A DNA stretch of 64,000 nucleotides from an uncultured Clostridia bacterium (GTDB lineage: Bacteria > Bacillota > Clostridia > TANB77 > CAG-508): assembly GCA_944392545.1 (NCBI GenBank), contig CALXWW010000001.1, forward strand, positions 153,210 to 217,209, read 5' to 3'. Position numbers and translations under genes: made by a program. Position 1 is the stretch's first letter. Each line of letters starts with the position of its first letter. The notes under the pieces are model-generated. The model saw nothing but the letters and a program-made list of their open reading frames with translations. It made no database searches and was not told where the DNA came from. Shown here one piece after another: positions 18,844-59,311 of the stretch.

Positions 18844-18859
18844 ATTATTATCTCCTTCT

Positions 18860-23700: not shown

Positions 23701-25077
23701 GCTAGTATGAATAAGCGTTTATCAAATAAAGTAGAACTAAAAGGTGATGGAAATTACGAAGTAAATAAAAAAATATTTACAAAAGACATGAAGAACGATT
23801 ATACAATTCTTATTCCACAAATGGCACCAATTCACTTTGAATTACTAGAAGCAGCTGTTCGACAATCTGGATATAAAGTAGAATTATTACGTAGTTGTAC
23901 AGATCATACAGTAGAAACAGGTCTAAAATATGTAAATAATGATGCTTGCTACCCATCAATATTAGTTACAGGACAAATGATAGAAGCATTACAATCAGGA
24001 AAATATGACTTAAATAAAACCGCTTTGATTATGTCTCAAACAGGTGGTGGTTGTAGAGCAACCAATTATATAGGATTTATTCGTAAAGCATTAAAAGATG
24101 CAGGCTTTGAAAACATTCCAGTAATCTCATTTAATGTTGTTGGAATGGAAAAAATGCCAGGATTTAAAATAACTTTACCTTTAATAGAAAGACTATTAAA
24201 AATGGTGGTATATGCAGATTTATTACAAAAAATGCTTACGAAAAATAGAGCTTACGAAATAAACAAAGGTGAAACACAAAAACTATTTGATACTTGGATG
24301 GAAAAATGTAAAAAATTACTTGAAAAGTCAACAATGAAAGAATTTAAACAAAGCATTTATGATATGGTAAATGACTTTGAGAAGATTGAACTTAATACCT
24401 CTGTAGAGAAACCTAAAGTAGGCATTGTCGGTGAAGTATTAATCAAATATCATCCATTTGGAAATAACTTTATTGCAAATAAATTGGAAGAAGAAGGTGC
24501 TGAAGTAGTTTTACCAGATTTTATGGGATTTATTAAATTTATTGCAACACATAAAATAACTTTTAATCAATTAATAAAAACTGATAAAATGAAGGCTAAA
24601 TTATTTAAAACAGCAATAAAACTAATAGATATATTAGAAAAAGATTCTAAAATAGCTTTAGCAAACTCTAAAAAAGGATATTTGCCTCCAGCAAATATTT
24701 GGGAATTAGAAGATAAAGTAAAAGATGTTTTATCAATAGGAAATCAAACAGGTGAAGGATGGTTTCTAACTGCAGAGATGATAGAATACATAGAAAATGG
24801 TATACCAAATATAGCTTGTGTACAACCATTTGCCTGCTTGCCAAACCATGTTGTTGGAAAAGGTGTAATTAAAACTATTAGAAGTAAATTTCCTGAAGCA
24901 AATATATCTGCAATAGATTATGATCCAGGTGCAAGTGAAGCAAATCAAACAAATAGAATTAAACTGTTAATGACAGTTGCAAAAGATAATTTAAAGAAAC
25001 AGCAAAAAGAAAAAAAAGTAATAGAAAAAGAAAATACAAATAATTTAGAAAAAAATCCTGAAAAAATACTTAAATAA
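20749..25077 (+). CDS. Fused acyl-CoA dehydratase activase (BadF/BadG/BcrA/BcrD ATPase x2) + HgdB-like dehydratase subunit domains, 1442 aa
   Basis: Two acetate/sugar-kinase-fold ATPase modules (LHVGLDVGSTTVKIVV... and FVGIDAGSTTTKLTLI...), then Cys-rich dehydratase-component-like regions. Confidence 0.8.
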   Translation: MNNLLHVGLDVGSTTVKIVVMDDNLNIIYRDYQRHFSDTKNTVCSVLERLSEKYPESEFTIALTGSGAMSAAKFLDLPFIQEVVSCKRAVEKYIPKTDVVIELGGEDAKIIYFDKSIEQRMNGSCAGGTGAFIDQMASLLNTDPTGLNELAKNYQTIYPIASRCGVFAKTDIQPLLNEGAAKEDIAVSIFQAVVNQTISGLACGRPIRGNVAFLGGPLNYLSELRKRFIETLNLTPEQIIVPEEAHLLVAMGAALDSVEEAKPITVEKLKSKIEVLRVSHDDTSNPLSPLFSIDADYEEFKQRHEKDKVERADLKTFEGDCFVGIDAGSTTTKLTLIDSDGKLLYSLYGSNEGNPLQSVVKMLKQLYAELPEKAVIRYSGVTGYGEKLIQTALNVDLNEIETIAHYTAAKKFMPNVTSIVDIGGQDMKYIKMKNGAIDNIMLNEACSSGCGSFIETFAKSLNLSIEEFVKAALEARRPVDLGSRCTVFMNSKIKQAQKEGYSVGDISAGLSYSVIKNAIQKVMKVRDVKKLGAHIVVQGGTFYNDAVLRAFELIVGRNVIRPDIAGLMGSYGMALLAKEQYEANLDMEYKSTITKLEDLDSLKIDISHIRCNGCENHCLLTVNKFGNGTKYISGNRCEKGAGIVGERTELPNLVKYKYERIFGYTPLEEKDAPRGTIGIPRVLNMYEDYPFWFTFLTNLGFRVILSEKSNRKTYEKGMESMPSESVCFPAKLSHGHIIGLINQGIKTIFYPCMPYSRKEYEKADNHYNCPIVISYSEVLKNNVEEIKEKNIKFLNPFLPFDSKNLAKTILELPEFKEYNFTKKELLQAAEKAEKEYKKCKSDIQKKGQETVEYIEKNNLRGIVLAGRPYHVDPEVNHGIDTLITSLGLCVLTEDSISNQTEVKRPIRVVDQWVFHARLYAAADFVGKHDNLELVQLNSFGCGVDAVTTDQVEEILTSYGKMYTLIKIDEINNLGAVRIRIRSLLASMNKRLSNKVELKGDGNYEVNKKIFTKDMKNDYTILIPQMAPIHFELLEAAVRQSGYKVELLRSCTDHTVETGLKYVNNDACYPSILVTGQMIEALQSGKYDLNKTALIMSQTGGGCRATNYIGFIRKALKDAGFENIPVISFNVVGMEKMPGFKITLPLIERLLKMVVYADLLQKMLTKNRAYEINKGETQKLFDTWMEKCKKLLEKSTMKEFKQSIYDMVNDFEKIELNTSVEKPKVGIVGEVLIKYHPFGNNFIANKLEEEGAEVVLPDFMGFIKFIATHKITFNQLIKTDKMKAKLFKTAIKLIDILEKDSKIALANSKKGYLPPANIWELEDKVKDVLSIGNQTGEGWFLTAEMIEYIENGIPNIACVQPFACLPNHVVGKGVIKTIRSKFPEANISAIDYDPGASEANQTNRIKLLMTVAKDNLKKQQKEKKVIEKENTNNLEKNPEKILK

Positions 25078-25090
25078 ATCTATAAAAAAT

Positions 25091-25140
25091 AAAAAAGTTG
25101 TGAAAAATAAATATCATAACTTTTTTATTTTTTTATTAAA
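25091..25140 (+). terminator. Terminator after the activase gene
   Basis: aagttgtga...tcataactt stem, then a T-run. Confidence 0.45.
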
Positions 25141-26930
25141 TTAGATACATTATTATATTTTATTTTTTATTATAAAATATTAATTATCATTTCTGTTTTT
25201 ATTTAATAATTATTTTAATTATTATTTTATTGCTTTATTTTTTTATAATTTTTTATTTATATTTATTTTTAATAAATATATTTTATTAATTATTTATTTT
25301 TATTCTAATAATTTAATTTTTATTTGAATTAATATATTATTTTGATTATTTTCTTATTTATTTTTGATTTGTTTTTTATAATTTATTTCTTTTTTTCTCT
25401 TTTATTTTTTTCTCATTATATCATATTATTTAAATTATTAATTTTTTATTTATTCGGTTTTATCTTCTATCCACTTTTTTATTCTACTTTGCTTTGATTT
25501 GTGTTAATATATCATTTGTCTTTTTGTTAATATTTTATCTTTCTCATCATTTTAAGCAGAGATTCTTTCTCTTTTATTTTTATTACTCAAAAATGTTTCC
25601 TTTATTTTTCATTTTATGTTCACTTACTATTTGTATTTTATATCTTTTTACTTCTTTGCTATTCCGTTAGTTTTTTCTTTTATTTTTTTCATTTTTCTTT
25701 AGATTCTACTTTATTAATTAGTTTACATATATTTATTTTTTATATACTTGTTTTTAGATACATTATTTCGTTTTTACTCCTTACTATTTTTATTTTTCCT
25801 TTTTGACAATTTGTAGGTTTTGCTTATTCTCCACTAGTATTCCTTTTGCTTTGTTTTTTATTTAAGATCTTTACAATTTTAATCATAATTATATTCTTAA
25901 ATTTTATATTTATTTCTTATTATTTTTTAATTCAGTTTTTATTTGTATTTTTAATTTTATTATTTATTATAAAATATTAATTATTATTTTTGTTTTATTT
26001 AATAATTATTTTGATTATTATTTTGTATTAATTATTTTATTAATTTATTTTTTATATTATTTATTTTTATTTTTAATAAATATATTTTATTAATTATTTT
26101 TTATTTATTTAAATTTTAATAAATTAATTTTTATAATAAATAATATCTATTTTATTTAATTTTTATTATATATATTAAATTTATTTTTTATAATTCTTTT
26201 ATTGTTCTTTAATTATTTAATAATATATATTATAGTTCTTAAATATTTAAGATTTTTGTATGTTTAACAATAAATTTTATTTTAACATTCTCTTTAAGTT
26301 TTATCAATATATTATTTGTCTTTTTGTTAATATGTTATTTTTTATGCTTCTCTTCACATGTTTCTTTGCTTTCTATTATTCTTAGTATCTTCTATTACAT
26401 TACCTTTTCTTTATCTTATGTCTACTATTTCTTTTTCTTTTTTATATTCTCGCTTATTCACTATTCCGTTGCCGATTTTCTTATCTATATTCACTTTTTC
26501 TTAGCATTTTTGTTTAAGTAATAGTTTACATATATTTATCTAGCTTATTGCTTTTTTCTATCCTCTTTCTTATTATTTTTGTTTTCATATTTTTCATTCT
26601 CCTTTTTGACAATTTCATCATATTCTATGTATCTGTTTTTCGCTCTCTTATTTTCCATTTTTCTTTACAGTTTTTACAGTTTTTACCATTAATTATATTA
26701 CTTATTCTCATATTTATTTTTATTATTTTATTTAATTTTATTGTATATTTTATTTATTATTTAAATAAATTTATGTATTTTAATTTTATTTTTATATTTT
26801 TAATTGTTTATTTTTATATTCTTAATTATTTATTTTTATAAATAATTTTTATTTTGTATATTATTAATAAAACTTGTATTTTTTTTATTTTCACGATATA
26901 ATAATCATTGTTAATAATATAAGGAGGTAT
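25141..26930. repeat. AT-extreme tandem array 1: about 2.2 copies of an ~800-bp non-coding unit, T-rich on the + strand
   Basis: A partial tail copy at 25141-25421, a full copy from 25422 (catattatttaaatt...) and a diverged third copy from about 26290. Landmark motifs such as atattatttgtctttttgttaatat and ttttaagcagagat recur about 800 bp apart. The same unit reappears at 28700-30140. Confidence 0.85.
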
Positions 26931-26933
26931 ATT

Positions 26934-27488
26934 ATGCTACTTGCTTTAGCAGGAGTTACTGGAGTTGGTAAATCTTATTTCAAAGATCTGCTAGTAAAAA
27001 AATTAAATTTTGAAAAAATAAAAATAATTACTACTCGACAAATAAGACCAGGAGAAAAAAATAATGAAGATAAAATTTTTGTTTCTCCTGAAGAATTACA
27101 AAATTTTAAAAATTCAGATATAATTGCTTATGATTTTAATATGCTTGGTAATATATATGCATATTTAAAGGATGATTTATTTTCAGAAAAAAATACTGTT
27201 TTTGAACTTCACTACTCAACAATTTTCGATTTAAAAAAGATTTGTCCAAATATGGTCGCAGTTTATATTTTTCCTGAAAATTTAGAAATGGCTAAGGAAG
27301 AAACAAGAAAAAGACATCTCGATTCTGAAGTTGAAAAAAATAGGTTGTTAGAAATAGATGAACACTATTACAAAATACTTTCTGATGAACATTTAAGAAA
27401 TCAATTTGATTATTTTATATCTAATAGCTATAACCAAAAATCAGAAAATGAAATATTAGAATTAGTAAAAAAAATATTAAATAAATAG
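26934..27488 (+). CDS. Guanylate-kinase-like P-loop nucleoside monophosphate kinase
   Basis: P-loop LALAGVTGVGKS, then ITTRQIRPGE, which matches the guanylate kinase TTR-PR-GE motif. AAGGAGG RBS before the ATG at 26934. Confidence 0.6.
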   Translation: MLLALAGVTGVGKSYFKDLLVKKLNFEKIKIITTRQIRPGEKNNEDKIFVSPEELQNFKNSDIIAYDFNMLGNIYAYLKDDLFSEKNTVFELHYSTIFDLKKICPNMVAVYIFPENLEMAKEETRKRHLDSEVEKNRLLEIDEHYYKILSDEHLRNQFDYFISNSYNQKSENEILELVKKILNK

Positions 27489-27499
27489 GAGAATATAAT

Positions 27500-28333
27500 A
27501 TGTCAAAAGATTATTTTTCACTAGATGAAGATTTTTCAAATATCATAAAAAAATCTTTATCTGCTAAAGAAATTATTAATATAAAACCAATCTCTACAGG
27601 TTGGACCAATATAGTATTTGAAGTAACAACTACTTGTGGAAATTATTTTTTTAGATTTCCTAGAGATAATTTTTGGATTAGAACAATTGTTAAAGATTAT
27701 GAATTTTCTAAGTTTATTAACGGAAAAACTGATTTTAATACTGTAAAATTAGAATTACAATATGATAATGGGAGACCATATAGCATACATAAGAAAATAG
27801 AAGGAACAGTATTAGCAGATGTAATGAATAGCTTATCTCCTCAACAAATAAAGACTGTTGCTAAAGATATTTCAAATTTTATGTACCAATTACACAACAT
27901 AAAATTTGATTATAATGAAATTTTTGATATAACAAATATAGGACTTAATTTAACCGATTTTTTAAATGAATTATTAGACCTACATGTTTCACAAAAAGAT
28001 AAAGTCTTTTGGAAATATGAAGAATTTAAAAATAAAGAACATGATACACTAGTTCATGGAGACTTAAACTCAAGTAATATATTACTTGATGAAAATTATC
28101 ATGTTACCGCAATTATTGACTTTGGCTTTGGTGGATTTGGAAATCCATATTTTGATATATCTCGTATTATTGGTAGATGTCCTTCTTCTTTCAAGAATGA
28201 AATTATTGATAGTTATGAAGAACTATCAAATAAAAATTTAGATTATGCTACTTTAAATAAGGAAATTAAAGTTTGGGAAAACATAGATAATTCATATATT
28301 AATTATATGAAAAAAATAGGAATATATAAATAA
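27500..28333 (+). CDS. APH/choline-kinase family phosphotransferase
   Basis: Catalytic loop HGDLNSSNILLDE and IDFGFGGFGNPYFDISR, typical of aminoglycoside/small-molecule phosphotransferases. Confidence 0.75.
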   Translation: MSKDYFSLDEDFSNIIKKSLSAKEIINIKPISTGWTNIVFEVTTTCGNYFFRFPRDNFWIRTIVKDYEFSKFINGKTDFNTVKLELQYDNGRPYSIHKKIEGTVLADVMNSLSPQQIKTVAKDISNFMYQLHNIKFDYNEIFDITNIGLNLTDFLNELLDLHVSQKDKVFWKYEEFKNKEHDTLVHGDLNSSNILLDENYHVTAIIDFGFGGFGNPYFDISRIIGRCPSSFKNEIIDSYEELSNKNLDYATLNKEIKVWENIDNSYINYMKKIGIYK

Positions 28334-28365
28334 AGCTAATACTAAAAAGTATTAGCTTTATTTAT
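28332..28365. terminator. Bidirectional hairpin between the APH-like gene and the tRNA-Ser genes
   Basis: aaagctaatact aaaa agtattagcttt, then tttatttat. Confidence 0.5.
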
Positions 28366-28366
28366 T

Positions 28367-28457
28367 TGGCGGAAGCGAGAGGATTTGAACCTCCGCGGCC
28401 CTTACGAACCCTAGCAGTTTAGCAAACTGCCCCCTTCAACCACTTGGGTACGCCTCC
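28367..28457 (-). tRNA. tRNA-Ser (anticodon GCT)
   Basis: Reverse complement GGAGGCGTACCCAAGTGGTTGAAGGGGGCAGTTTGCTAAACTGC..., long variable arm, T-arm GGAGGTTCAAATCCTCT, CCA. Confidence 0.85.
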
Positions 28458-28502
28458 ATATAATAAAAGTTAGAAAATTCAATTATCTAACTTTTAAATA
28501 TT

Positions 28503-28594
<92 letters not shown>

Positions 28595-28624
28595 GTGTTA
28601 ATTCTACCAATCACGGTAACAGTA

Positions 28625-28670
28625 TATATATTAACATATTTAGCCTTTAGTTGTCAATAGTAATTTTAGG
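28625..28670 (-). promoter_or_regulatory. Candidate sigma-A promoter for the tRNA-Ser pair
   Basis: On the minus strand: TTGACA, a 17-nt spacer, then TTAATAT, about 30 nt before the tRNA-Ser(TGA) 5' end. Confidence 0.4.
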
Positions 28671-28699
28671 AAATTTTATATTAATATACTTAAAACTAT

Positions 28700-30140
28700 T
28701 TTATAAAAAATAAGAAGTAAAATATTGTCATATATATATATTATTTTTTGATTTATAAAATAATTTTAATTGTATTTTTTAATTTATTATTTATTTTTTT
28801 AATAAATATATTTTATTAATTTTTATTTATTAATTTTAATTTATTAATTTTATTATTTATTTAATTTTTATTTAATATTTATTTAAATTAATATATTATT
28901 TTTTCATTTATTTTTTTATTGTTTAATATTTTATCTATATTAAATATTTTGTATTTATTATTTTATTTATTATTTTATTTAATTCTGATTTAGTTTTTAT
29001 AATTTATCTCTTTTTTCTATTTTATTTTTTCTCTCTATATCATATTATTTAAATTCTTAATTTTATATTTATTTAGTTTTATCTTCTATTCACTTTTTTG
29101 TTCTACTTTGTTTTGATTTGCCTCGATATATTATTTGTCTTTTTGTTAATATGTTATCTTTCTCATCATTTTAAGCAGAGATCTTTTTTTCTTTTATTTT
29201 TATTACTCATAAATATTTCCTTTATCTTTTATTTTATGTTTACTTTTGCTTTGTTTTTTATATCTTTTTACTTTTTTGCTATTCCGCTAGTTTTTTTCTT
29301 TTATTTTTTTCATTTTTCTTTAGATTCTACTTTATTAATTAGTTTACATATATTTATTTTTTATATACTTATTTTTATATACTTTCTTTTGTTTTTACTT
29401 TTTACTATTTTTGGTTTTCCTTTTTGACAATTTATAAGTTTTTGTTTATTCTCCATTAGTAGTCCTTTTCCCTTGTTTTTTATTTAAGATCTTTACAATT
29501 TTAATCATAATTATATTCTTAAATTTTATATTTACTTCTTATTATTTTTTAATTCAGTTTTTATTTGTGTTTTAATTTTATTATTTATTATAAAATATTA
29601 ATTATTATTTCTGTTTTTATTTAATAATTATTTTAATTATTATTTTATATTAATTATTTTATTAATTTATTTTTTAATATTTTTTATTTATTATTTATAT
29701 TTATTTTTAATAAATATATTTTATTAATTATTTTTTATTTATTTTACTTTTAATAAATTAATTTTTTATAATAAATAATATCTATTTTATTTAATTTTTA
29801 TTATATATATATTAAATTTATTTTTTATAATTCTTTGTTAATATTTTTTATTAATATTTGTTATATTACATCAATCTATTATTTTTAAATAAACTATTTA
29901 TTATATATTTATTAATTATTTTTTATTACTTCTCATTTATTTTCGTTCTTTATTTTTTGTTTTTAAGCTTTTAAATTTTATTTAAATATATCTTTATATT
30001 TAATACTATAAATGAGCTTAAAATTACTTTAAATTAATTTTATTTTATTACTAATAATAATTATTAAAATTGTTATAAAAAAATAAGTATTTAATTTATT
30101 TAAATACTTATTTTTTATCATCTGATAATCAATACAATAT
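28700..30140. repeat. AT-extreme tandem array 2: second copy set of the ~800-bp unit
   Basis: A full unit from 29041 (catattatttaaattcttaattttat...) is near-identical to 25422-26220. A partial copy precedes it (28730-29040) and a degenerate tail follows to about 30140. It is in direct orientation relative to array 1, about 3.6 kb away. Confidence 0.85.
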
Positions 30141-30670: not shown

Positions 30671-31525
30671 TTATTTTATAAGTCCTAAAATTCTCTCTAA
30701 ATCATCGTATGAAGAGTATTGAATAATTATTTTTCCAGATTTTTTATTGGCATTTAACTTTACTTTTGTCCCAAAGAAACCTTGGAAAGAATCTTCTATA
30801 TCTCTATATATTGCTTCAATTCTAGGATCTTTTTTATCTATTGTTTTTGAGTTCTTTATTTTTCTTTCTATATCCCTTACAGATTCCCCTCTTTCTATTA
30901 TATTTAATGCTGCCTTATACTGTCTTTCTGGATCTTCAATTACAACTAAATTCCTACAATGTCCTTCTGTAAGCTTTCCTTCTTGCGCAAGTTCAATTAC
31001 TCTTGGGTCTAAATTTAAAATTCTTATAGAGTTTGCTATATTACTTCTACTTATTCCTATAGAATCTGCAAGCTCTTTTTGAGTCATTCCATAATCATCA
31101 ATTAGTTCTTTTAGTCCTTTTGCTTTATCTATTGGATTTAAATCTACTCTCTGTAAATTCTCTATCAATGCTATTTCTTTATTTGATTTATCTGTTATAT
31201 CATCTTTTATAATACATGGCATTTCAGATAATCCTGCCTTTTTAGCTGCTCTCCAACGTCTCTCTCCTGCTACTATTTCATAATAATCGCTTTTTTTATT
31301 AACTATAATAGGTTGTAACACCCCATAAGTTTTTATGGAATTTGCAAGTTCTTCTAAAGCTTCTTCATCAAATTTTTTTCTAGGTTGTTCTCTATTAGGT
31401 TCAATCTCTATAACTTTTATTTTATGAATTTTTTCTGCAGAATTTTCTAAATTTTCTACATCATTTGATAATAAATTATCTGCAAATAGTGCATCTAAGC
31501 CTTTTCCTAATCCAGTTTTTTTCAT
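30671..31525 (-). CDS. spo0J: Chromosome partitioning protein ParB/Spo0J
   Basis: ParB box IVAGERRWRAAKKAGL and an HTH (MTQKELADSIGISRSNIANSIR). Confidence 0.9.
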   Translation of the reverse strand: MKKTGLGKGLDALFADNLLSNDVENLENSAEKIHKIKVIEIEPNREQPRKKFDEEALEELANSIKTYGVLQPIIVNKKSDYYEIVAGERRWRAAKKAGLSEMPCIIKDDITDKSNKEIALIENLQRVDLNPIDKAKGLKELIDDYGMTQKELADSIGISRSNIANSIRILNLDPRVIELAQEGKLTEGHCRNLVVIEDPERQYKAALNIIERGESVRDIERKIKNSKTIDKKDPRIEAIYRDIEDSFQGFFGTKVKLNANKKSGKIIIQYSSYDDLERILGLIK

Positions 31526-31552
31526 CTTTACCTCCTAAATATACTTTATTTT

Positions 31553-32344
31553 TTATAATGAATGTTTACCACGTGAATCTGTTTCGTTTTTCTTAAGAAA
31601 TTCTTTTACAAATTTTTCATAACTCTTTGCCCCTTTTGATCTTGGATCATATATACTAATTGGCATTCCATAGCTTGGTGCTTCACTTAACTTAACATTT
31701 CTTGGAATAACGTTTTTATAAACTTTATCATTAAAATATTTTTTTACTTCTTTAACTACTTGATTAGATAAATTAGTTCTTATGTCATACATAGTAAGAA
31801 GAGCACCTTCTATTTCTATATTCTTATTAAGATGCTTCTTTACTAAATTTATTGTATTAAGTAATTGTCCTAATCCTTCTAATGCATAATATTCGCATTG
31901 TACTGGTATTAAAACACTATCTGAAGCAGTAAAAGCATTTAATGTAATTAATCCTAATGATGGAGGACAATCTATTATAATAAAATCATAGTCTGCTTTA
32001 ATTTTATCTAATTTTTCTTTTAATCTTTGCTCTCTTGACATTACAGAAACTAGTTCAACTTCAGCCCCTGCAAGGTTTATATTAGAAGGACATATATTTA
32101 AGTTTTTAATATTTGTCTTTTTGACAACTTCGTCAACTTCTATTTCGTTTATTAGAATATCGTAAACAGATACTTCTATATTATCTCTATCTATCCCAAC
32201 TCCACTAGAAGCATTTCCTTGAGGATCTGCGTCAATCATTAAAACTTTTTTGCCTTTCTTTGCAATAATAGTGCTTAAATTAATTGCGGTTGTAGTCTTT
32301 CCTACTCCTCCTTTTTGATTTGCAATCGAAATAATTTTCCCCAT
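31553..32344 (-). CDS. soj: Chromosome partitioning ATPase ParA/Soj
   Basis: Deviant Walker A IANQKGGVGKTTTAINL. The start is the ATG at 32344 after AGGAGG, shorter than the tracked ORF. Confidence 0.9.
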   Translation of the reverse strand: MGKIISIANQKGGVGKTTTAINLSTIIAKKGKKVLMIDADPQGNASSGVGIDRDNIEVSVYDILINEIEVDEVVKKTNIKNLNICPSNINLAGAEVELVSVMSREQRLKEKLDKIKADYDFIIIDCPPSLGLITLNAFTASDSVLIPVQCEYYALEGLGQLLNTINLVKKHLNKNIEIEGALLTMYDIRTNLSNQVVKEVKKYFNDKVYKNVIPRNVKLSEAPSYGMPISIYDPRSKGAKSYEKFVKEFLKKNETDSRGKHSL

Positions 32345-32483
32345 ATCATAGCCTCCTAAAAAAATTAACATATTAATAATATATAATAATTAATAATATG
32401 TCAATAAATTTCGTATAAATATTTCATATTTTTTTATAAAAAAATAAGGAAATCTTTTATTCGAATTTCCTTACTTATTATTT

Positions 32484-43822: not shown

Positions 43823-45772
<1,950 letters not shown>

Positions 45773-45786
45773 CAATTTGTAAAAAT

Positions 45787-45840
45787 AAATAGGTAAATAA
45801 TTAATAGATTAAATATTAATTATTTACCTATTTATATATT
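45787..45840 (+). terminator. gyrB terminator
   Basis: aaataggtaaataattaa...ttaattatttacctattt stem-loop. Confidence 0.6.
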
Positions 45841-45920
45841 TGGAGATAAAAAAGTTATTGATAATAAAACAATAACAAAACAATGTACAAAAAATGTCGA
45901 AAATTAGAGTACGGTTTTTC

Positions 45921-45956
45921 TTGAAAAGTTAATAAAAATATGGTATAAAAAAGAGA
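45921..45956 (+). promoter_or_regulatory. Candidate strong sigma-A promoter for the VirB4 operon
   Basis: TTGAAA, a 17-nt spacer, then tgGTATAAA, an extended -10. Confidence 0.45.
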
Positions 45957-46099
45957 ATGAAATTTCAATTAATTTTAATCATATTATTTTATATTATTTA
46001 GTAGTTTTTTTGGAATTAATATCAAAATAATTTTAATCTTTAAATATTCAAAAAATAATTAATTTAATTAAATAAAAATATTAATAGAAATATATTTAA

Positions 46100-46723
46100 T
46101 TATTTATTTCTATTAATTACTTATGGGAGGAGGAATATATAATAAAAATAAATAAAAAAAATAATATTAATTCTAGCCAGGAATGGTTAAAAATAGAAAG
46201 AATATTAGAAAACGGAATAATCAAAACAAAAGATAATAGATATTTAAAAATAATTAAAATAAATCCTATTAATTTTAACTTAAAATCAGATTTAGAAAAA
46301 GAAGCCATTTTAAATTCATATAAAATTTTTTTAAAGACATGTGACTTTAATTTTCAAATATTAATACAAAGCAATAAAGTAGATTTATCCAATCATTTTT
46401 CTCAAATAAATAATAATTTAATTCAGGAAGAAAAAAATATTCAAGAAATATCAAAAAAATATATAGAAAAAATAAAAGAATTAAATAATAATAAAAAATC
46501 ATCATCAAAAAATTATTATATAATTTTAGAATATATTAATAAAAATAACGAAATTATAGATATTGAAGCTAACTCAATAGAAAATTTAAATAATAAATAT
46601 TTTAAAATAAAAGATGGATTATCAAGATGCGGAAATCTTGCTATAGATATAAACGATAAAAGACAAATAAAGAATATATTATTTTCTTTTTTTAATACAA
46701 GAATTTATACTAATAATAAGTAA
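46100..46723 (+). CDS. VirB4/TcpF-family conjugation ATPase, N-terminal domain fragment (ORF lacks ATG/GTG/TTG)
   Basis: The open frame from 46100 translates ...SSQEWLKIERILENGIIKTKDNRYLKIIKINPINFNLKSDLEKEAILNSYKIFLKTCDFNFQILIQS...LSRCGNLAIDINDKRQIKNILFSFFN. This is the N-terminal pattern of Gram-positive VirB4 proteins (Tn916 Orf16 / TcpF-like). GGGAGGAGG sits at 46125-46133, but the only in-frame codons after it are ATA/ATT. The ORF contains no Met at all. Confidence 0.55.
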   Translation, partial: LFISINYLWEEEYIIKINKKNNINSSQEWLKIERILENGIIKTKDNRYLKIIKINPINFNLKSDLEKEAILNSYKIFLKTCDFNFQILIQSNKVDLSNHFSQINNNLIQEEKNIQEISKKYIEKIKELNNNKKSSSKNYYIILEYINKNNEIIDIEANSIENLNNKYFKIKDGLSRCGNLAIDINDKRQIKNILFSFFNTRIYTNNK

Positions 46724-46810
46724 ATAATAATAAAAAATAATTAATTGAAATAATAATAAAGGATATTTTAAATTAAAATATTTTTAAAAATTTTAGAAAG
46801 GAAAAATATA

Positions 46811-48658
46811 ATGGAAAATATTTTTAAATTAAAAATAAAAAATAAAAAAAACAATAAAGAAAAATTAAAATTTTTAGAAGGTACATTTTTAGATGAAGAT
46901 TTTTTAGCGCCATCATATATTGATTTATCTAATCCAAAATATATTCAAATAGATAATAACTATTTTTCATCAATATTAATAGTAAATTATTTTAGAGAGC
47001 AAAATGAATTACTTTTAAAAACTTTAATAGATACAAATATGAATATAAATATCTCAATTTTTTATGAAAAACAAGATAATTATAAAGCGATAAGAGAACT
47101 TACATACCATATAGGAAATGTAGGTGCTGATTTAAAAAGTAGCAATCAGAATAGACAGGATATAGATATAGCAGCTTTTACATATAATGATGCAAAATAT
47201 ATTAGAAAAGAATTACAAATAAATAATGAAGATTTATATTATTTATATATTTATGTATGTATATATTCTCAAGATTTAAATGAAATAGAAAATATTTTAA
47301 ATAAAATAGAAGGGATAATAGAAAGTAAAGGATTGCACGCAAGAAGAGCATATTTTAGACAAGAACAAACATACAGGGCTTGTTTACCTTTGATGGAGAA
47401 TAATAAATTATTAAAGGAAGTGGCAAAACGAAACGTATTAACCAGTGGAATTGTATGTACATACCCATTTATATCCTCAGCTATTTTTGATGATACAGGA
47501 ATATTTATTGGAATAAATATATATAATAATTCTTTAATATTTGTTGATAGATATAACACTCAAAAATATAAAAATGCAAATATGTGCATTTTTGGAACTT
47601 CAGGTGCTGGAAAATCTTTTTATACAAAATTGTTAATTTTAAGATATAGAATACTAGGAATAGAACAATATATAATAGATCCAGAAAGAGAATATAATAA
47701 TTTATGTGAAAATTTAAATGGAACACTTTTAAAAATAGGACCTGGTTCAGACACATATATAAATGTATTTGATATAAGAAAAGAAAGTATAGAAGATAAT
47801 GAACAAGGATATTTAGCAAATAAAATTAGTAAGTTAATAGGTTTTTTTAATCTTATATTTGGAAAAATAAATGAAGAAGAAAAAGCAATTTTGGAAGAAA
47901 AATTAATAGAATTATATGCTACAAAATATATTACTTTCGATGATAAAAGTTTATACAAAGAAAATAATTTAGAAAAAGGAATAAATAATATTATTTTTAA
48001 AGAAAGTACAGATATGCCAATTTTACAAGACTTTTATAATATATTAGACAAAGATGAAAGAACAAAAATATTTAAAACAAAATTAATTCCTTTTATAAGA
48101 GGTTCTTTAAAATTTTTTAATAATTATACAAATGTAGAATTAAATAATAAATTAATTGTTGCAGACGTATATGAATTAGGAGAAGAAAATTTAAAATACG
48201 GAATGTATTTATTTACAGAACTATTTTGGGACAAAATAAAGAAGGACAGAAAAATAAAAAAAGCAATATATTTAGATGAAATATGGAGATTAATAGGTGT
48301 TACTTCTAACAAAGATGTTGCTAGTTTCATATATAAAATATTTAAAACTATTAGAAAATATGGAGGAAGTGGAGTTGCGGTTACTCAGGACATATCAGAT
48401 ATTTTTAGTTTAGAAGATGGAGTATATGGAAAAAGTATTTTAAATAATTCTAGCATAAAAACATTTTTTTCTTTAGAAGAAGAGAATATAAAAATATTAG
48501 AAAAATTTACTAATTTATCAGAAAAAGAAAAAATAGAAATAAAGTCTTTAAAAAGGGGAGAATGCCTAACATTTATAGGAGATGAACATATATTAAATAA
48601 AATATATGCAGCAGATTTTGAAAAAGAAATTATAGAAAATAAAATTAATTTTAATTAA
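46811..48658 (+). CDS. VirB4/CagE/TrbE-family type IV secretion ATPase (C-terminal 615 aa)
   Basis: Walker A FGTSGAGKSFYTKLL, the DPEREY motif (VirB4 D-P-x-G-E-Y), Walker B KAIYLDEIWRLIG and VAVTQDISDIF. Confidence 0.8.
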   Translation: MENIFKLKIKNKKNNKEKLKFLEGTFLDEDFLAPSYIDLSNPKYIQIDNNYFSSILIVNYFREQNELLLKTLIDTNMNINISIFYEKQDNYKAIRELTYHIGNVGADLKSSNQNRQDIDIAAFTYNDAKYIRKELQINNEDLYYLYIYVCIYSQDLNEIENILNKIEGIIESKGLHARRAYFRQEQTYRACLPLMENNKLLKEVAKRNVLTSGIVCTYPFISSAIFDDTGIFIGINIYNNSLIFVDRYNTQKYKNANMCIFGTSGAGKSFYTKLLILRYRILGIEQYIIDPEREYNNLCENLNGTLLKIGPGSDTYINVFDIRKESIEDNEQGYLANKISKLIGFFNLIFGKINEEEKAILEEKLIELYATKYITFDDKSLYKENNLEKGINNIIFKESTDMPILQDFYNILDKDERTKIFKTKLIPFIRGSLKFFNNYTNVELNNKLIVADVYELGEENLKYGMYLFTELFWDKIKKDRKIKKAIYLDEIWRLIGVTSNKDVASFIYKIFKTIRKYGGSGVAVTQDISDIFSLEDGVYGKSILNNSSIKTFFSLEEENIKILEKFTNLSEKEKIEIKSLKRGECLTFIGDEHILNKIYAADFEKEIIENKINFN

Positions 48659-48676
48659 AAATAAAAAGGAATAAAT

Positions 48677-50005
48677 ATGAAGAAAATAATAACTGCTATC
48701 GGAAATGAATTTATAAATAATGAATTAAAAAAAGAAAAAAATTTAAATGTTATTTTAAATGATATCCAATATAAAGAAGGAATAGTCGAGAGTTTGGAGA
48801 AAGAAAATGAAGTTGATTATATAATAATAAATAGTGTATTACAAGGTGAGACAAAAATAGAAGATTTAATAAAACAAATTTATATAATTAATAAATATAT
48901 TAAAATAATAATTATTATAGAAAATAATGAAAAAGAAATAGAAAAATATTTAAATTATAAAAATATATATAAAATTATTTATTTAGACAAAGACGATAAA
49001 GTTAATATGCAAAAAATAATAGAAATAATAAGTAATGATCATGAAAATAATAAAATAATTAATATAAAAAAAGAAGAAAAAAATAAAGAGAATAAAAAAG
49101 AAAGTAAAAAAATTAAAGGAGAAAGAAATAACACAAACATAGTATTAATAAAAAGAATAGCAAAAAATATAATAAATAATTATTTAATAAAACAATTGAG
49201 TTCAAAAAAAATTAAATTTAATTCAAAAAAATCATTGAAAAATAAAATAAAGAATAAAAGCATTTGCATAACAGGGCCACCAGGAGTTGGAAAAACAATT
49301 ATATCCATAAATTTAGCTAAAATAAATATTTATAAAAATGATAAGATTTTAATTATTAATTCAGACTTTTTTAATAATTCTATTAACACAATTTTAGGTC
49401 TTAGGAATATATCAAGAAATATAAATATAGAAAAAAAGTGTAAAGAAAATAATGAATATTTAAAAAATAATTTTGATAACATTTTTGAATGTTTTAATAT
49501 AATTAAAATTAATAAAAAAATAGATTTATTAATTTTAAAAAAAGAAAAAACAAAAGAAAATATTGAAAATATGTTTTTAAATAAAATAATTGAAAATATT
49601 AATTTTTTAAAAGATATTTATGAAATTATAATAATTGATACTAATTATAATGAAAAATCAAATAATTTAAAGAATATAACAGAGATATGCGATTTTTGTT
49701 TATTTATTTCTGATACTAATTTACTAGAAATAAACCAATCGATAAAATTACTAGATATATTTATAAATAAATTAAATATTAAAATTAATAATATAAAAAT
49801 AATGTTTAATAAATATAATTCTGAATCAATTAGTTTTAACTTATTAAAAAATATATTTAGCGAATTTGAGGTAATAGGAAAATTAAATTATAGAAAAATA
49901 TATAATAAATTGATTAATAAAAATAATAAATATAGTTTGTTAGATAAAAAACTAAAGAAAGAATATATAAATATTAATAATAAAATAAACAATATAAAAA
50001 AATAA
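48677..50005 (+). CDS. P-loop NTPase with N-terminal receiver-like (pseudo-receiver) domain, CpaE/TadZ- or ParA/FlhF-like
   Basis: N-terminal MKKIITAIGNEFINN...VDYIIINSVLQGE alternating beta/alpha pattern with no phospho-Asp context. The C-terminal ITGPPGVGKTIISINLAKI P-loop and IIIDTNYN. Extremely Asn/Lys/Ile-rich. Confidence 0.45.
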   Translation: MKKIITAIGNEFINNELKKEKNLNVILNDIQYKEGIVESLEKENEVDYIIINSVLQGETKIEDLIKQIYIINKYIKIIIIIENNEKEIEKYLNYKNIYKIIYLDKDDKVNMQKIIEIISNDHENNKIINIKKEEKNKENKKESKKIKGERNNTNIVLIKRIAKNIINNYLIKQLSSKKIKFNSKKSLKNKIKNKSICITGPPGVGKTIISINLAKINIYKNDKILIINSDFFNNSINTILGLRNISRNINIEKKCKENNEYLKNNFDNIFECFNIIKINKKIDLLILKKEKTKENIENMFLNKIIENINFLKDIYEIIIIDTNYNEKSNNLKNITEICDFCLFISDTNLLEINQSIKLLDIFINKLNIKINNIKIMFNKYNSESISFNLLKNIFSEFEVIGKLNYRKIYNKLINKNNKYSLLDKKLKKEYININNKINNIKK

Positions 50006-50039
50006 ACAATATAAAAAAATAAACAATATAAAAAAATAA
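49986..50039 (+). repeat. Three tandem copies of an 18-bp unit (aataaacaatataaaaaa)
   Basis: Direct tandem repeat spanning the stop of the P-loop NTPase gene and the RBS of the next ORF. Confidence 0.6.
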
Positions 50040-50053
50040 AAAGGAGAAAAGTT

Positions 50054-50773
50054 ATGGAATTAGAAAAAAATATTGATTTAAAAAATAATTTAAATGAAGA
50101 AAATATTGTACAAGAACAGAATAATTTTTTACAATCTAATATAGGTAAAACGGTTAATTCTGCTTTAGACATAGGACTTCGAATGGTTCTTCCAGATTTT
50201 ATAGAAGATGGTATAGTAGAAATAAAAGATGCTTTTTTCCAAGGAGGATTTAAAGAGGGAATAGATACAGCGATAGATAATGCAATAAATCTGGGAAAAA
50301 GTGTTATGGGAATATTTACTGGAGACTTTGATAGTATTTCTCAAGCGAGAGACGCTGTAAAAAATGGAGGAATAATAGATGGAATTTCAAACGTATTGGA
50401 TAAAGTATTAGACAAGACAGAATCGTCAGGGTTAATAAGTGGCAATATAGCAAATATAATTAGTAGTGGTAAAGATGCAATATTAAATAGTGTGAGCAAC
50501 AGAATAGAAAATGAATTCACAAACCAAATAAGTGGAGTGGAAAATTTAGAAAGATATGAAAATGACTGGAAAGAATATTTTAATAAACGAGATTTTGATG
50601 GAATGCAGAGAGAATATGAAAAAATACAAGAAAAATTAGAAGAATTAATGCCTTTGGAAAATACAATAAAAAAAGCACGTATTATAGAAAATTTACATAC
50701 TTTAATAAAAAATAATAATCATGATTTTAATTTAACAGATGAACAGAGAGAGTTGGCCAATTTATTAACATAA
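50054..50773 (+). CDS. Hypothetical protein (239 aa), compositionally distinct from neighbours
   Basis: Gly/Asp/Ser-rich soluble protein, visibly less AT-biased than the two upstream genes. No recognisable motif. Confidence 0.45.
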   Translation: MELEKNIDLKNNLNEENIVQEQNNFLQSNIGKTVNSALDIGLRMVLPDFIEDGIVEIKDAFFQGGFKEGIDTAIDNAINLGKSVMGIFTGDFDSISQARDAVKNGGIIDGISNVLDKVLDKTESSGLISGNIANIISSGKDAILNSVSNRIENEFTNQISGVENLERYENDWKEYFNKRDFDGMQREYEKIQEKLEELMPLENTIKKARIIENLHTLIKNNNHDFNLTDEQRELANLLT

Positions 50774-50892
50774 ATATAAAAATTATTAAACAAAGACTAA
50801 TAAAATAAATTTAAATATTAAAAAATTTTTAATATTAAAACATTAAAATTAGGAATAAGAAACAGTAAAAAAATATTAAAAAGTTTTTTTGG

Positions 50893-50930
50893 AAAAAAGG
50901 CTATTTTTTCAAAAAGAATTAGCCTTTTTT
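50893..50930 (+). terminator. Terminator preceding gyrA
   Basis: aaaaaaggcta ... tagcctttttt 11-bp stem. Confidence 0.5.
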
Positions 50931-50932
50931 AC

Positions 50933-50962
50933 TTGCAAATTTTGCTGTATTTATAGTATAAT
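50933..50962 (+). promoter_or_regulatory. gyrA promoter
   Basis: TTGCAA, an 18-nt spacer, then TATAAT. Confidence 0.5.
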
Positions 50963-51008
50963 ACAAGAGTAGTTATTGTAACATTTTTGAAAGGACGGAA
51001 TAAATAAA

Positions 51009-53447
51009 ATGGAAGAAAATGAAGGAAAAATTATCGAAAGAAATATTGAAACAGAAATGAAAACATCATATATTGATTATGCTATGAGTGTTATTGTTTC
51101 TCGTGCACTTCCAGATGTAAGAGATGGTTTAAAACCAGTACATAGAAGAATTCTATATGCTATGTATGAAGATGGAATAACTTCTGACAAACCTTACAGA
51201 AAAAGTGCCAATACAGTAGGTTCAGTTTTAGGAAGATATCATCCACATGGAGATTCATCAGTTTATGATGCAATGGTAAGAATGGCACAAGATTTCTCTA
51301 TGAGATATCCACTAATTGATGGACATGGAAACTTTGGTTCTGTTGATGGAGATGCGCCAGCAGCTATGAGGTATACAGAAGCAAGAATGTCAAAGATAGC
51401 AGAGACAATGCTTACAGACATAGAAAAGAATACAGTTGATTTTATGCCTAACTATGATGATAGATTACAAGAACCAACAGTTTTACCAGCTAAAATACCT
51501 ACACTTTTAATAAATGGTTCTTCAGGAATTGCCGTAGGTATGGCAACAAATATTCCACCACATAATTTGACAGAAGTTATAAATGGAATAGTTAAGATAA
51601 TTGATGATGATAATGTTACAGATGAACAATTAATGAGCATTATAAAAGGACCAGATTTCCCTACAGAAGGATTAATTTTGGGAAGAGATGGAATAAAAGA
51701 AGCATATACAACAGGTAAAGGTAAGATAACAATGAGAGCAGAGGCAGAAATAGAAGAAATGAGTGGAAACAAACAAAGAATCATTGTTAGATCTTTACCA
51801 TACCAAGTAAATAAAGCAAAATTAATCGAAAATATTGCAAACTTAGTAAAAGAAAAAAGGATAGAAGGAATTTCAGAAGTAAGAGATGAATCAGATAGAG
51901 AAGAAAAGGTAAGAATAGTCGTAGAACTAAAAAGAGACGTAAATGCTCAAGTAATATTAAATCAATTATTTAAATATACACAAATGCAAGATACTTTTGG
52001 AGTTATAATGTTAGCATTGGTTAATGGAGAACCAAAGATATTAACTTTGAGACAATGCTTAGAGTATTATATAGACCACAGAAAAGCAGTAATTCTTCGT
52101 AGGACACAATTTGATTTAGATAAAGCATTAGCAAGAGCTCATATATTAGAGGGATTAAAAATTGCATTAGATAATATAGATGAGGTAATTGAAATAATCA
52201 GAAATTCTTATGATGATGCAAAAGAAAGATTAATGGAAAGATTTGGACTTTCAGACATACAAGCACAAGCTATTCTAGATATGAGATTAAAAACTTTATC
52301 AGGATTACAACGTGAAAAAATAGAAGAAGAATATGCAGAATTAATGAAATTAATTGAGCATTTAAGAGCAATACTTGCAAGTGATAAGCTTGTATATGAC
52401 ATTATAAAAGAAGAACTATTAGAAATAAAAGATAAATACGGAGACGAGAGAAAGACAAAAATAGTTGCAGCTGAAGGAGAGTTCGACGTAGAAGATTTAA
52501 TAAAAGAAGAACAATGTGTTGTTGCACTAACTCATTTTGGTTATGTAAAGAGAATGCCAATAGATACATATAAAAGCCAAAAAAGAGGAGGAAAAGGAAT
52601 AACGGGAATTGCTACTAGAGAAGAGGACTTTGTAAAAGAAATATTTACATGTTCTACACATGATACAATACTATTCTTTAGCAACAAAGGAAAAGTATAT
52701 AGATTAAGAGGATATGAAATACCAGAAGCAGGAAGAACTGCTAAAGGTACTGCAATAGTAAATCTTTTAATGCTAGATGGAGGAGAAAAGATATCTGCAG
52801 TTATACCTATTGCAACTTTTGCAGAAGGCAAATATCTATTAATGGCTACAAAAAATGGAATAATTAAAAAGACATCGCTTAATGAATACATGTCTGTAAG
52901 AAAAAGTGGATTAATAGGAATAACTTTAAAAGATGAGGATGAACTTATAGATGTAAGACTTACTGATGGTGAAGACAATGTAGTACTTGTAACACATAAA
53001 GGAATGTGTATAACATTTGATGAAAAAGACGTAAGACCTATGGGAAGAGTATCACAAGGAGTTATTGGTATTAGATTAGATGACGAAGATTATGTTATAG
53101 GGATGGAATCAATAATTCAGGGAAGTAAGGCAACTCTTTTGGCAATAACAGAGAACGGATTCGGAAAAAGAACAGAGCTTGATGAATATAGAGTTCAAAC
53201 AAGAGGAGGAAAAGGTGTAATAACATATAAAGTAACACCTAAAACAGGAAATTTAGTTGGAATAAGAATTACTACAGATGACGAAGACGTAATGTTGATT
53301 ACTGATACAGGAACAATAATTAGACTTAAAGTTTCAGATATAAGTGTATTGGGACGTTCTACTCAAGGTGTAACTTTAATGAGAACTAATGAAGGAAAAG
53401 TAGTTAGTATAGAAACAATTCCTATGGAAGAAAAGGAAGAAGAATAG
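51009..53447 (+). CDS. gyrA: DNA gyrase subunit A
   Basis: Active-site region [10 protein letters not shown] (catalytic Tyr), QRDR-like region [20 protein letters not shown], and C-terminal beta-pinwheel repeats. Confidence 0.95.
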
Positions 53448-55881: not shown

Positions 55882-56166
55882 TTAATATTTTTTATATAAA
55901 TATATCTTAGGAGAAAAAATATATTTGTATAAATATTTAATAATATATAACATTTTTTCATGATTAAAACCTATAATACTAAATAAGAAAAAAGGGAAAA
56001 AGAAAACTATAAAAAAACTTATTTTTAAAGTAATATTAGGGATAAGAAAATAAGATATAAAAAACACAAATGATCCCCATAATATATTTAAAATAACAGT
56101 AGTATAATCAATAAAACCTAATAATTTACTATCAAAATTATAATTTTGTGGAAAAATAAATTTCAT
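55882..56166 (-). CDS. Small 2-TM membrane protein (possible PrgI/TcpE-like T4SS component)
   Basis: 94 aa, two hydrophobic helices, abuts the VirB6-like gene. Confidence 0.3.
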   Translation of the reverse strand: MKFIFPQNYNFDSKLLGFIDYTTVILNILWGSFVFFISYFLIPNITLKISFFIVFFFPFFLFSIIGFNHEKMLYIIKYLYKYIFSPKIYLYKKY

Positions 56167-56168
56167 AA

Positions 56169-57065
56169 TTATTTAATCTGTCCTTTCATTAATTTAAAAT
56201 TTTGTGAAACATCTGTGGAAATTCCACCTATAAAATGTTGAGTATATGAATTAGCTCTTAGCAGAGCATATAATGAACCAATGCATAATAATTTAGAAAG
56301 AATATCAGAAGAGGAGAAATCTAAAGAAGAAACTATTAAAAGAATAATCGAAATAAATGGTTGAATAAAAAGAAGAGATAAAAAAATTTTAAGCCAAGAT
56401 TTAAAAAACCAAGAACTTGAAGCATTTATTAGTGAAAGAAAAGCAAAAGGCATTAATAATATTAGAACTTTTATCATTATATATCTTAAGGAATAGGTAA
56501 ATAATAAGCTTACAAAACTAAAAGATATAATACTCCTTAAAATTCCATCAAAAGAGAATACGTTAATATTAGTAGAATCAATTGTGATAATTGAATTTAA
56601 ATTTTCTATTAATGCAGAAAAAGAAATTTCTGTATTTAAAATAGAAGAGCCAATTTGGCAAATTAACGAAGAAATTAAATCAGTAAAATATATAAAAAAT
56701 TCACATATAAAATAAGAACAATTAATAAACATTCCAAATATTAATAATTTGAAAATAAATTGATATGGTTTCTCAATAGAAATACCTGTAAAGTGTGAAT
56801 AAATTAATTTAAAACAGTAGTATAAACAAGTAGCAACAAGTAGAGAATTTGCAACTATTAGTAAACTATTATTTGAACCATGTCCAAATATTTTAGAAAA
56901 TAAAGAATCACTTAAAATATCTGTGCCTATAAAAGTTAATTCATCTAGAGTATTATAGACACTATTATCAATAGAAGAGAAAAGTGAATTTAATAGACTA
57001 TTTATAGTATCTATAATAACTTGTGAAATGTTAGTAAGCTCTGCTTCTGAAATATTTCCTTCCAA
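56169..57065 (-). CDS. Polytopic membrane protein, VirB6/TrbL-like candidate
   Basis: 298 aa with about 6 predicted TM helices separated by short loops. Size and topology match minimal VirB6. The assignment is positional and topological, not motif-based. Confidence 0.4.
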   Translation of the reverse strand: MEGNISEAELTNISQVIIDTINSLLNSLFSSIDNSVYNTLDELTFIGTDILSDSLFSKIFGHGSNNSLLIVANSLLVATCLYYCFKLIYSHFTGISIEKPYQFIFKLLIFGMFINCSYFICEFFIYFTDLISSLICQIGSSILNTEISFSALIENLNSIITIDSTNINVFSFDGILRSIISFSFVSLLFTYSLRYIMIKVLILLMPFAFLSLINASSSWFFKSWLKIFLSLLFIQPFISIILLIVSSLDFSSSDILSKLLCIGSLYALLRANSYTQHFIGGISTDVSQNFKLMKGQIK

Positions 57066-57080
57066 AGTACACCTCCACGA

Positions 57081-57428
57081 CTATTCTACTAAAGATTTAA
57101 TTGCAGACAAAATTAAATTGATTGCAAGAATAAAAGCATAAGAAAATAAAGAACCTCTAATTAATTTCTTTGCAACTCTGATTCTTTCTTCATCACCAAA
57201 GCTAAATTTTTTCATAAAAACTCCAACGCCTACAGCAACTGCAGCAGCCGGAGTAGCTAAAGTAATAAGCCAACCTTTAATGCTTTCAAATGCATTAGTT
57301 AATTTATCTACTAATGCTGGTGGACTATCAAAAAGAGCAGATTTGCAAATATTATTGAACAGTGTTAAAAAAATGAATAATAGAAAAATAAAATAGAATA
57401 AAATAAATATGTTTTTAGATTTTTTCAT
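57081..57428 (-). CDS. VirB2/TrbC-like pilin-type protein
   Basis: Signal/TM N-terminus, then KGWLITLATPAAAVAVGVGVFM and a second hydrophobic helix. This resembles the hairpin architecture of TrbC/VirB2. Confidence 0.45.
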   Translation of the reverse strand: MKKSKNIFILFYFIFLLFIFLTLFNNICKSALFDSPPALVDKLTNAFESIKGWLITLATPAAAVAVGVGVFMKKFSFGDEERIRVAKKLIRGSLFSYAFILAINLILSAIKSLVE

Positions 57429-57445
57429 AAAATACCTCCTTGTAA

Positions 57446-59311
<1,866 letters not shown>

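Follow-up and report, generated by a model that had tools for sequence, protein, structure and literature searches.

How a gene with a strong ribosome-binding site and no conventional start codon is translated, and whether it is a gene at all, is the question raised by a locus of an uncultured Clostridia bacterium (TANB77 lineage; GenBank assembly GCA_944392545.1, contig CALXWW010000001.1, positions 153,210 to 217,209 of the forward strand). This stretch of 64,000 nucleotides (nt) is called the window below. At positions 46100-46723 of its forward strand, a long open frame precedes an open reading frame (ORF) for a VirB4-family ATPase of the type IV secretion systems (T4SS). In our assessment, positions 46139-46723 quite likely represent a functional, separate gene for a TrsD-like N-terminal domain of VirB4 (hereafter the N piece), initiated at an AUA codon, either 46139 or 46142.

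Sequence features of the N-piece open frame

The frame comprises 207 codons, is closed by a TAA codon at 46721-46723 and contains EWLKIERILENGIIKTKDNRYLKIIKINPINF. The codons ATG, GTG, TTG and CTG are all absent from it, and ATA, ATT and ATC are found 22, 14 and 1 times, respectively. The GC content of the N-piece gene is 15.9% and the predicted product includes the peptide stretches LSRCGNLAIDINDK and YFKIKDGLSR. With a canonical-start codon frequency of 2.3%, as obtained from the three neighbouring genes of the same cassette, the probability of 207 codons without a canonical start is about 0.008. This is the sole real long open frame of the window that displays such a lack. The other genes (about 45) mostly begin with ATG, GTG or TTG behind a recognisable Shine-Dalgarno (SD) sequence, at a usual spacing of 5-9 nt, and none of them needs an ATA or ATT start, so that no genome-wide habit is involved.

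The extended SD sequence GGGAGGAGG is followed in frame by the codons TAT, ATA and ATA. The two ATA codons are located 5 nt (46139) and 8 nt (46142) downstream of the SD, distances that fit the range of the other genes of the window, and the choice between them cannot be told. The original prediction, based on the sequence of the window, had described a frame devoid of ATG, GTG and TTG behind a strong ribosome-binding site; the codon counts and the position of GGGAGGAGG (46125-46133) bear this out. It was equally exact about an ATG at 46123 in the +1 frame, which opens a mini-ORF (MGGGIYNKNK, then a stop) ending at the start of a run of eight A, and about the 87-nt spacer, the six in-frame stops and the restart of the ATPase frame at 46811 in the same reading frame. 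These stops are TAA codons at 46721, 46742, 46751, 46754, 46757 and 46769. The total length of the two pieces, predicted to be about 805 amino acids, was found to be about 809 (about 194 + 615). The mini-ORF is probably meaningless, and the A run is ordinary coding sequence and no slippage site.

The two pieces correspond to one VirB4 protein

The N piece matches two NCBIfam VirB4 profiles, the CD1110 family at positions 2-138 (E 7.5e-8) and the Mbov_0397 family at positions 93-260 (E 4e-8). Compared by BLASTP with the 942-amino-acid PrgI-VirB4 protein of Vescimonas (WP_212822118), it displays 32% identity over 163 amino acids (E 1e-22, subject residues 126-282). The 14 best matches of its AlphaFold model in the PDB, searched with Foldseek, are all TrwK/VirB4 of R388 (best probability 0.99, TM-score 0.43). 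Among PDB data, only this fold comparison recovered VirB4; nothing relevant came from searching the PDB sequences with a profile of the N piece. The Pfam scan of the N piece matched no family; PF26593 is present in the precomputed annotation of all 120 closest homologs, one of them 95% identical. Many residues are invariant across 16 homologs. With the TrsD/TraD profile NF041427, the N piece aligns at profile positions 17-173 of 201 (22.3 bits, E 9.6e-5), and its likeness to TrsD appears remote at the sequence level, despite the same gene layout.

The ATPase conserves the Walker A motif GTSGAGKS (residue 262) and the Walker B motif IYLDE (residue 486). Its scores against the Pfam families P-loop_TraG (80.9 bits) and AAA_10 (52.2 bits) both exceed the cut-offs, and its residues 223-607 align with the solved C-terminal domain of the Thermoanaerobacter VirB4 (4AG5/4AG6, E 2.8e-40). 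The NCBIfam profile of the CD1110-type VirB4 (NF045971) is covered by the ATPase at positions 188-730 of 752 with 282.9 bits; when the N piece and the ATPase are concatenated, a single stretch covers positions 2-730 with 298.4 bits. Neither score reaches the equivalog cut-off of 325 bits, and the pair reads as a divergent relative of the CD1110 VirB4, not as an equivalog. The only name found among the members of the clusters is "conjugal transfer ATP-binding protein TraC", carried by one ATPase. Matches in PHROGs are weak, and PADLOC returned nothing beyond generic P-loop matches for the ATPase (mad8, DndH), which was therefore not retained as part of a recognised defence system.

The two pieces are colinear with the Vescimonas protein: residues 10-166 of the N piece correspond to residues 126-282, and residues 30-608 of the ATPase to residues 337-923. 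Between these segments, 54 residues of PrgI-VirB4 are left unaligned, against 57 residues made of the end of the first piece and the start of the second. No residue is therefore missing at the junction, a point on which the original prediction had called for an alignment to full-length VirB4. The alignments place the break within the VirB4 N-terminal domain and not between the N- and C-terminal domains. By homology and colinearity, the N piece is confirmed as a VirB4 N-terminal domain, as had been proposed for the first ORF.

The split is conserved and the N piece is under selection

A scan with the family pattern, using one genome per species, found 480 genomes with a relative of the N piece, 80 of which were fetched (their loci are designated by L numbers). 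All 480 belong to uncultured gut Clostridia (Clostridium sp. CAG:273 is one example), and two closed chromosomes of 1.57 and 1.70 Mb are found among them. The order gyrB-N piece-VirB4-ParA-like-p239-gyrA is kept in every fetched locus that reaches the flanks, and the identity of this cassette declines in step with that of GyrB and GyrA. A fixed chromosomal site and an identity in step with gyrB and gyrA point to vertical inheritance and not to a mobile element. The 120 best homologs of the N piece (147-229 amino acids) and the 120 best homologs of the ATPase (597-642 amino acids) are all separate proteins. The naturally two-piece VirB4, one of the options of the original prediction, is thus supported, since the split is fixed in all the related genomes examined and the search for it in related strains was positive for every fetched locus with flanks.

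Wherever the N piece was located in the fetched species-level loci, its frame is open over about 190-200 codons. The pairwise ratio of nonsynonymous to synonymous substitution rates (dN/dS) between the N piece and 16 relatives ranges from 0.08 to 0.33; the values of 0.08-0.09 concern the closest relatives, which themselves have the same start-codon problem. Three strains (L087-L089), assembled from separate metagenome samples with coverages of 13x to 147x, encode an identical ATPase protein and differ from the window by single-nucleotide polymorphisms (SNPs). Their sequence is identical to the window from 46080 to 46200. This identity of the start region in three strains that carry SNPs indicates that it is no assembly artefact. 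In L088, three SNPs fall within the N piece and all are synonymous, at third codon positions. Together, these substitution patterns argue that the N-piece gene is functional and under purifying selection.

Start codons across the relatives

We lined up 65 distinct loci in frame upstream of the conserved motif QxW. The GGAGG core of the SD is invariant in close relatives and present in nearly all of these loci. About half of them display a textbook AGGAGG followed by ATG, which stands 3 nt past the SD in 23 loci (relatives with this arrangement include L013, L017-L029, L032 and L036-L038). A distance of 3 nt is unusually short by comparison with the 5-9 nt typical of the genes of the window and with the 7-8 nt of the ATA/ATT loci.

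In 28 of the 65 loci, including the window, the SD is equally strong and no canonical start follows it. An in-frame ATA or ATT is located 4-9 nt after the SD in all 28 (mode 7-8 nt), and an out-of-frame canonical codon is found 3-12 nt after the SD in only one. Five loci (L009, L010, L046, L053 and L030) carry an in-frame stop within the SD or immediately behind it, which makes an upstream start impossible; in five further loci, a stop stands immediately before the SD. The frame of these loci opens only at the ribosome-binding site. Relative to L003, the window shows a 1-nt indel in the interval from the SD to the ATA pair, with no change of the downstream frame, which indicates that the SD is not translated as part of the gene. 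A tree built from the concatenated proteins shows at least five switches between the canonical and ATA/ATT states, and the ATA/ATT state has persisted across clades.

Interpretation and alternative explanations

The layout shared by the 28 loci supports the option, raised in the original prediction, of an unusual initiation at an ATA or ATT codon after the ribosome-binding site, and the most economical reading of these sequences would be an AUA initiation directed by the SD. The extended SD GGGAGGAGG would direct the ribosome to AUA 46139 or 46142, and the resulting protein would constitute the first 190 residues or so of a VirB4-type ATPase, the remainder of which would be supplied by the 615-amino-acid ORF. 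The two polypeptides may then assemble into a VirB4-like unit. Near-cognate start codons are decoded as formylmethionine by the initiator tRNA, and initiation factor 3 (IF3) discriminates against them. The output from AUA would hence probably be below that of AUG and possibly IF3-dependent, and such a start could attenuate or regulate the production of the N-domain subunit.

Several observations weigh against this interpretation. Chance alone would place an in-frame ATA or ATT close to the SD in some 40% of loci; these codons are very common in a gene of 16% GC, and the loci are phylogenetically related. In ten loci, an in-frame TTG or ATG used by gene finders is present just upstream of the SD; these codons have no SD of their own, as in L001 and L003, where the TTG chosen by the gene finder lies upstream of the SD, and the window lacks that TTG. 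The first 12 residues or so of the N piece are poorly conserved, so that conservation cannot fix the exact start codon. Regarding the identity of the protein, the score of 22.3 bits is far from the membership cut-off of the TrsD/TraD family (200 bits), and the AlphaFold model is only moderate (pLDDT 62.8).

An initiation at another non-canonical site, either a later ATA or ATT (46148, 46166) or an SD-independent re-initiation after the mini-ORF, would be compatible with the poor conservation of the N-terminal residues and with the presence of several in-frame ATA/ATT codons downstream of the SD. We consider it rather improbable, since relatives retain the SD, their first in-frame ATA/ATT codons cluster at 4-9 nt from it with the mode at a normal spacing, and the mini-ORF is not conserved. 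An untranslated, decaying pseudogene of a once full-length VirB4 is what the absence of a canonical start codon, the very low GC content and the public gene calls, which omit or shorten the gene, might evoke. Such a decay, also envisaged in the original prediction, is very unlikely given the low dN/dS values, the exclusively synonymous SNPs within the species, the strong SD that is retained and a frame that has stayed open in all fetched loci where it was located, with relatives in 480 genomes.

The ATG at 46123, which precedes the first ATA by 16 nt and opens a 10-codon ORF ending at the A run, could in principle be the start if the main frame was reached by a +1 frameshift, by transcriptional slippage on the A run or through an assembly indel. 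This ATG overlaps the SD, has none of its own and is absent from relatives; among the 28 ATA/ATT loci, only the one mentioned above offers a canonical codon in any frame past the SD. The stop of the mini-ORF precedes the A run, so that slippage there rescues no frame, and an indel is contradicted by the identical sequence of three strains at 13x to 147x coverage. The frameshift or indel at the A run put forward by the original prediction is accordingly given very little credence. Finally, the reading frame common to both ORFs, which that prediction had emphasised, could suggest that ribosomes read through the 87-nt spacer and produce one full-length VirB4. They would need to pass six TAA codons, the ATPase ORF possesses its own SD and ATG, and in relatives the frame offset between the two pieces is 0, 1 and 2 in 15, 13 and 19 loci, respectively, with a spacer of widely variable length. 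The shared frame in the window is therefore a coincidence, and read-through has a negligible probability.

Comparison with known split VirB4 proteins and AUA/AUU starts

TrsD is a small protein remotely homologous to the N-terminus of VirB4 and encoded beside it; it is found in Gram-positive systems of the pGO1 type and is very widespread in Patescibacteria, where the T4SS genes are often near dnaA and without relaxase (PMC12102498). A role for the host, for instance in exchanging DNA or macromolecules, is assumed for the Patescibacteria system. TrsD is not mentioned in the main text of the 2014 paper on T4SS classes, and our statement on this protein rests on PMC12102498. Like TrsD and TrsE (VirB4) of the staphylococcal plasmids pGO1/pSK41 (subclass of MPF_FATA), the N piece is encoded by a small gene directly upstream of the ATPase. 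Like the TrsD-VirB4 pair of Patescibacteria, it is chromosomal and near dnaA, with no relaxase found in the window and with VirB2-, VirB3- and VirB6-like candidates. Unlike these TrsD systems, the host is a clade of low-GC gut Clostridia and the cassette adds a ParA-like protein and a 239-amino-acid protein; besides, the N piece is closer to the N-terminus of the CD1110-type VirB4 than to TrsD. The CD1110 VirB4 of Vescimonas fastidiosa plasmid pMM35_02 (WP_212822118) is colinear with both pieces (32% and 34% identity), but it is one polypeptide fused to PrgI/VirB3, and the conjugative-type cluster around it also encodes pilins and a VirD4-like protein.

In Staphylococcus aureus, ribosome profiling of start sites and reporters have validated the AUA starts of infC, ccpN and citZ and the AUU start of cvfC1; infC, cvfC1 and ccpN are reported to carry a strong, extended SD, and with the cvfC1, ccpN and citZ reporters the output was about 10-30% of that from AUG (PMC13009471). 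Other known cases are ccpN (AUA), also in Bacillus subtilis, and infC and pcnB (AUU) in Escherichia coli. The N-piece gene shares with these genes a strong SD at normal spacing from an in-frame AUA or AUU, a state conserved in related species and the absence of any canonical alternative in its open frame. The starts of S. aureus and E. coli were mapped experimentally, whereas that of the N piece is proposed from the sequence. Unlike the known AUA/AUU genes, its relatives alternate between ATG and ATA/ATT, as shown by the switches on the tree, and the weak start is rather tolerated or intermittently favoured than strictly conserved. A split VirB4 and an AUA-type start are both already known kinds, and the surprise is thus moderate. 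To the handful of AUA/AUU starts validated so far in Firmicutes, the locus adds one with comparatively good support, and the repeated switching among related species lends itself to use as a natural experiment on weak initiation.

Genomic context of the cassette

The window corresponds to the chromosomal origin region, with dnaA, dnaN, recF, a remA-like gene, gyrB, the cassette and gyrA in this order. The cassette is a block of 5 kb and four genes between gyrB and gyrA, with a GC content of 16-18% (about 27% in the flanks). Its features and those of a second group of T4SS genes are listed in Table 1.

Table 1. Features of the VirB4 cassette and of the second T4SS gene group (positions in the window).
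Feature	Position	Strand	Remarks
Putative sigma-A promoter of the cassette	45921-45949	+	-35 TTGAAA 45921-45926, 17-nt spacer, extended -10 TGgTATAAA 45941-45949
Out-of-frame ATG mini-ORF, MGGGIYNKNK	46123-46155	+	Overlaps the SD; stop 46153-46155; absent from relatives
Extended Shine-Dalgarno GGGAGGAGG	46125-46133	+	Read from sequence; GGAGG core conserved
Two in-frame ATA codons, proposed non-canonical start	46139-46141, 46142-46144	+	Proposed from SD spacing
Gene of the stand-alone VirB4 N-terminal-domain protein, about 194 amino acids	46139-46723	+	TrsD-like; PF26593 "TraC-like" in close homologs
A8 run	46154-46161	+	Codes N-K-K-N; identical in L087-L089, coding-conserved in L001 and L003
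Intergenic spacer, 87 nt	46724-46810	+	Five further in-frame TAA; weak SD (AGGA) of the ATPase gene
VirB4-family ATPase, 615 amino acids	46811-48658	+	Second half of N-domain and C-terminal motor domain
ParA/CbiA-like P-loop protein, 442 amino acids	48677-50005	+	Always adjoins the ATPase
p239, conserved 239-amino-acid protein	50054-50773	+	Last cassette gene before gyrA
Second T4SS gene group, four candidates	55882-59311	-	About 5 kb past the cassette, beyond gyrA and dnaI/dnaD-like genes
94-amino-acid protein with two transmembrane segments	55882-56166	-	VirB3/PrgI-like by position only; no family match
TrbL/VirB6-like protein with multiple transmembrane segments, 298 amino acids	56169-57065	-	PF19590 TrbL_3, weak precomputed match
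VirB2-like pilin candidate, 115 amino acids	57081-57428	-	PF18895 T4SS_pilin 22.4 bits, below cut-off 26.6
Coupling-protein-like ATPase (type IV coupling protein/VirD4-like), 621 amino acids	57446-59311	-	PF10412 29.5 bits, cut-off 20.5; TIGR03743 TraD 1.2e-8

The ParA/CbiA-like protein is an extra, fast-evolving copy, with 31-83% identity across the fetched loci and an N-terminal extension of about 190 amino acids; the canonical Soj/ParA-ParB pair is located elsewhere, at 30671-32371 (ParA-like 31553-32371). No significant match was found for p239 in Pfam or NCBIfam.

The putative promoter was drawn from conservation across species and not from a consensus scan, since such a scan of 45600-51100 is uninformative in this AT-rich DNA (62 promoter-like sites for 57.8 expected). 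In the alignment, the block TTGnAA...TGnTATAnA and, just upstream, the motif TGTCGAAA (45895-45902) recur at an unchanged position in many species, and the region 45895-45949 looks like an operator followed by an extended -10 promoter. In several relatives, the motif TGTCGAAA takes the form of a direct repeat TGTCG-N6-7-TGTCG. With a transcription start predicted about 7 nt past 45949, the SD would be preceded by a 5' leader of about 175 nt that is very rich in AT. The terminator scan of 45600-51100 detected no terminator, and the Rfam scan of the window detected only tRNAs and the signal recognition particle RNA.

A second group of T4SS-like genes near gyrA

The second group of T4SS-like genes is conserved in L087-L089 and L091. 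Its members are candidates for the components expected beside VirB4 in a monoderm (MPF_FATA-like) T4SS, and only the coupling-protein-like one exceeds its Pfam cut-off. No relaxase domain was detected in the 40 or so larger ORFs of the window that were scanned, and the cassette occupies one and the same chromosomal site in all fetched loci with flanks; on both counts, no mark of a conjugative element was found. The N piece and the ATPase belong to a chromosomal, vertically inherited T4SS gene set that flanks gyrA next to the origin of replication. The occurrence of such an origin-proximal set, in which no relaxase was found, in gut Clostridia with reduced genomes parallels the situation of Patescibacteria and may be a more important lead than the start codon itself. 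Our literature search on TANB77 and type IV secretion found nothing relevant.

A broader scenario can be proposed tentatively, and we regard it as possible but doubtful as a whole: a domesticated, vertically inherited T4SS, present throughout the clade and split around gyrA, could be the Firmicute counterpart of the origin-proximal system of Patescibacteria, and the AUA/AUU start could be a selected, IF3-sensitive throttle. Its inventory would comprise the TrsD-like protein, VirB4, the ParA-like protein and p239 on one side, and the coupling-protein-like, pilin-like, VirB6-like and VirB3-like candidates on the other side. If this holds true, the throttle would set the stoichiometry of the subunits or couple their expression to the growth state.

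Consequences for annotation

A probable ATA start would explain why gene finders miss the N-piece gene. It is uncalled between gyrB and the ATPase gene in the public assemblies L087, L089 and L091, truncated to 114-165 amino acids in others (for example L088 9569-9913 and L090 9420-9914), and elsewhere lengthened up to a spurious TTG that precedes the SD. Many of the "165-aa" homologs in databases probably result from the same truncation artefact. The T4SS inventories of these abundant gut Clostridia are thus incomplete. The internal GTG chosen by the gene finder in L088 arose through a synonymous GTA-to-GTG SNP at window position 46381.

Two islands of 16-21% GC stand out from the background of about 27% in the window. 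The first (46000-50000) is the VirB4 cassette, although it is vertically inherited; the second (24000-30000) contains two tRNA-Ser genes, kinase-like ORFs and long hydrophobic low-complexity frames of doubtful reality. Small insertions occur in some species (L003-L005 at about 10630-11050, L090 at 15278-16624 and L091 at 18821-19804), for example a gene of the PDDEXK_2 or FGE-sulfatase-like type between p239 and gyrA, or an rve integrase gene between the dnaD-like and VirB3-like genes.

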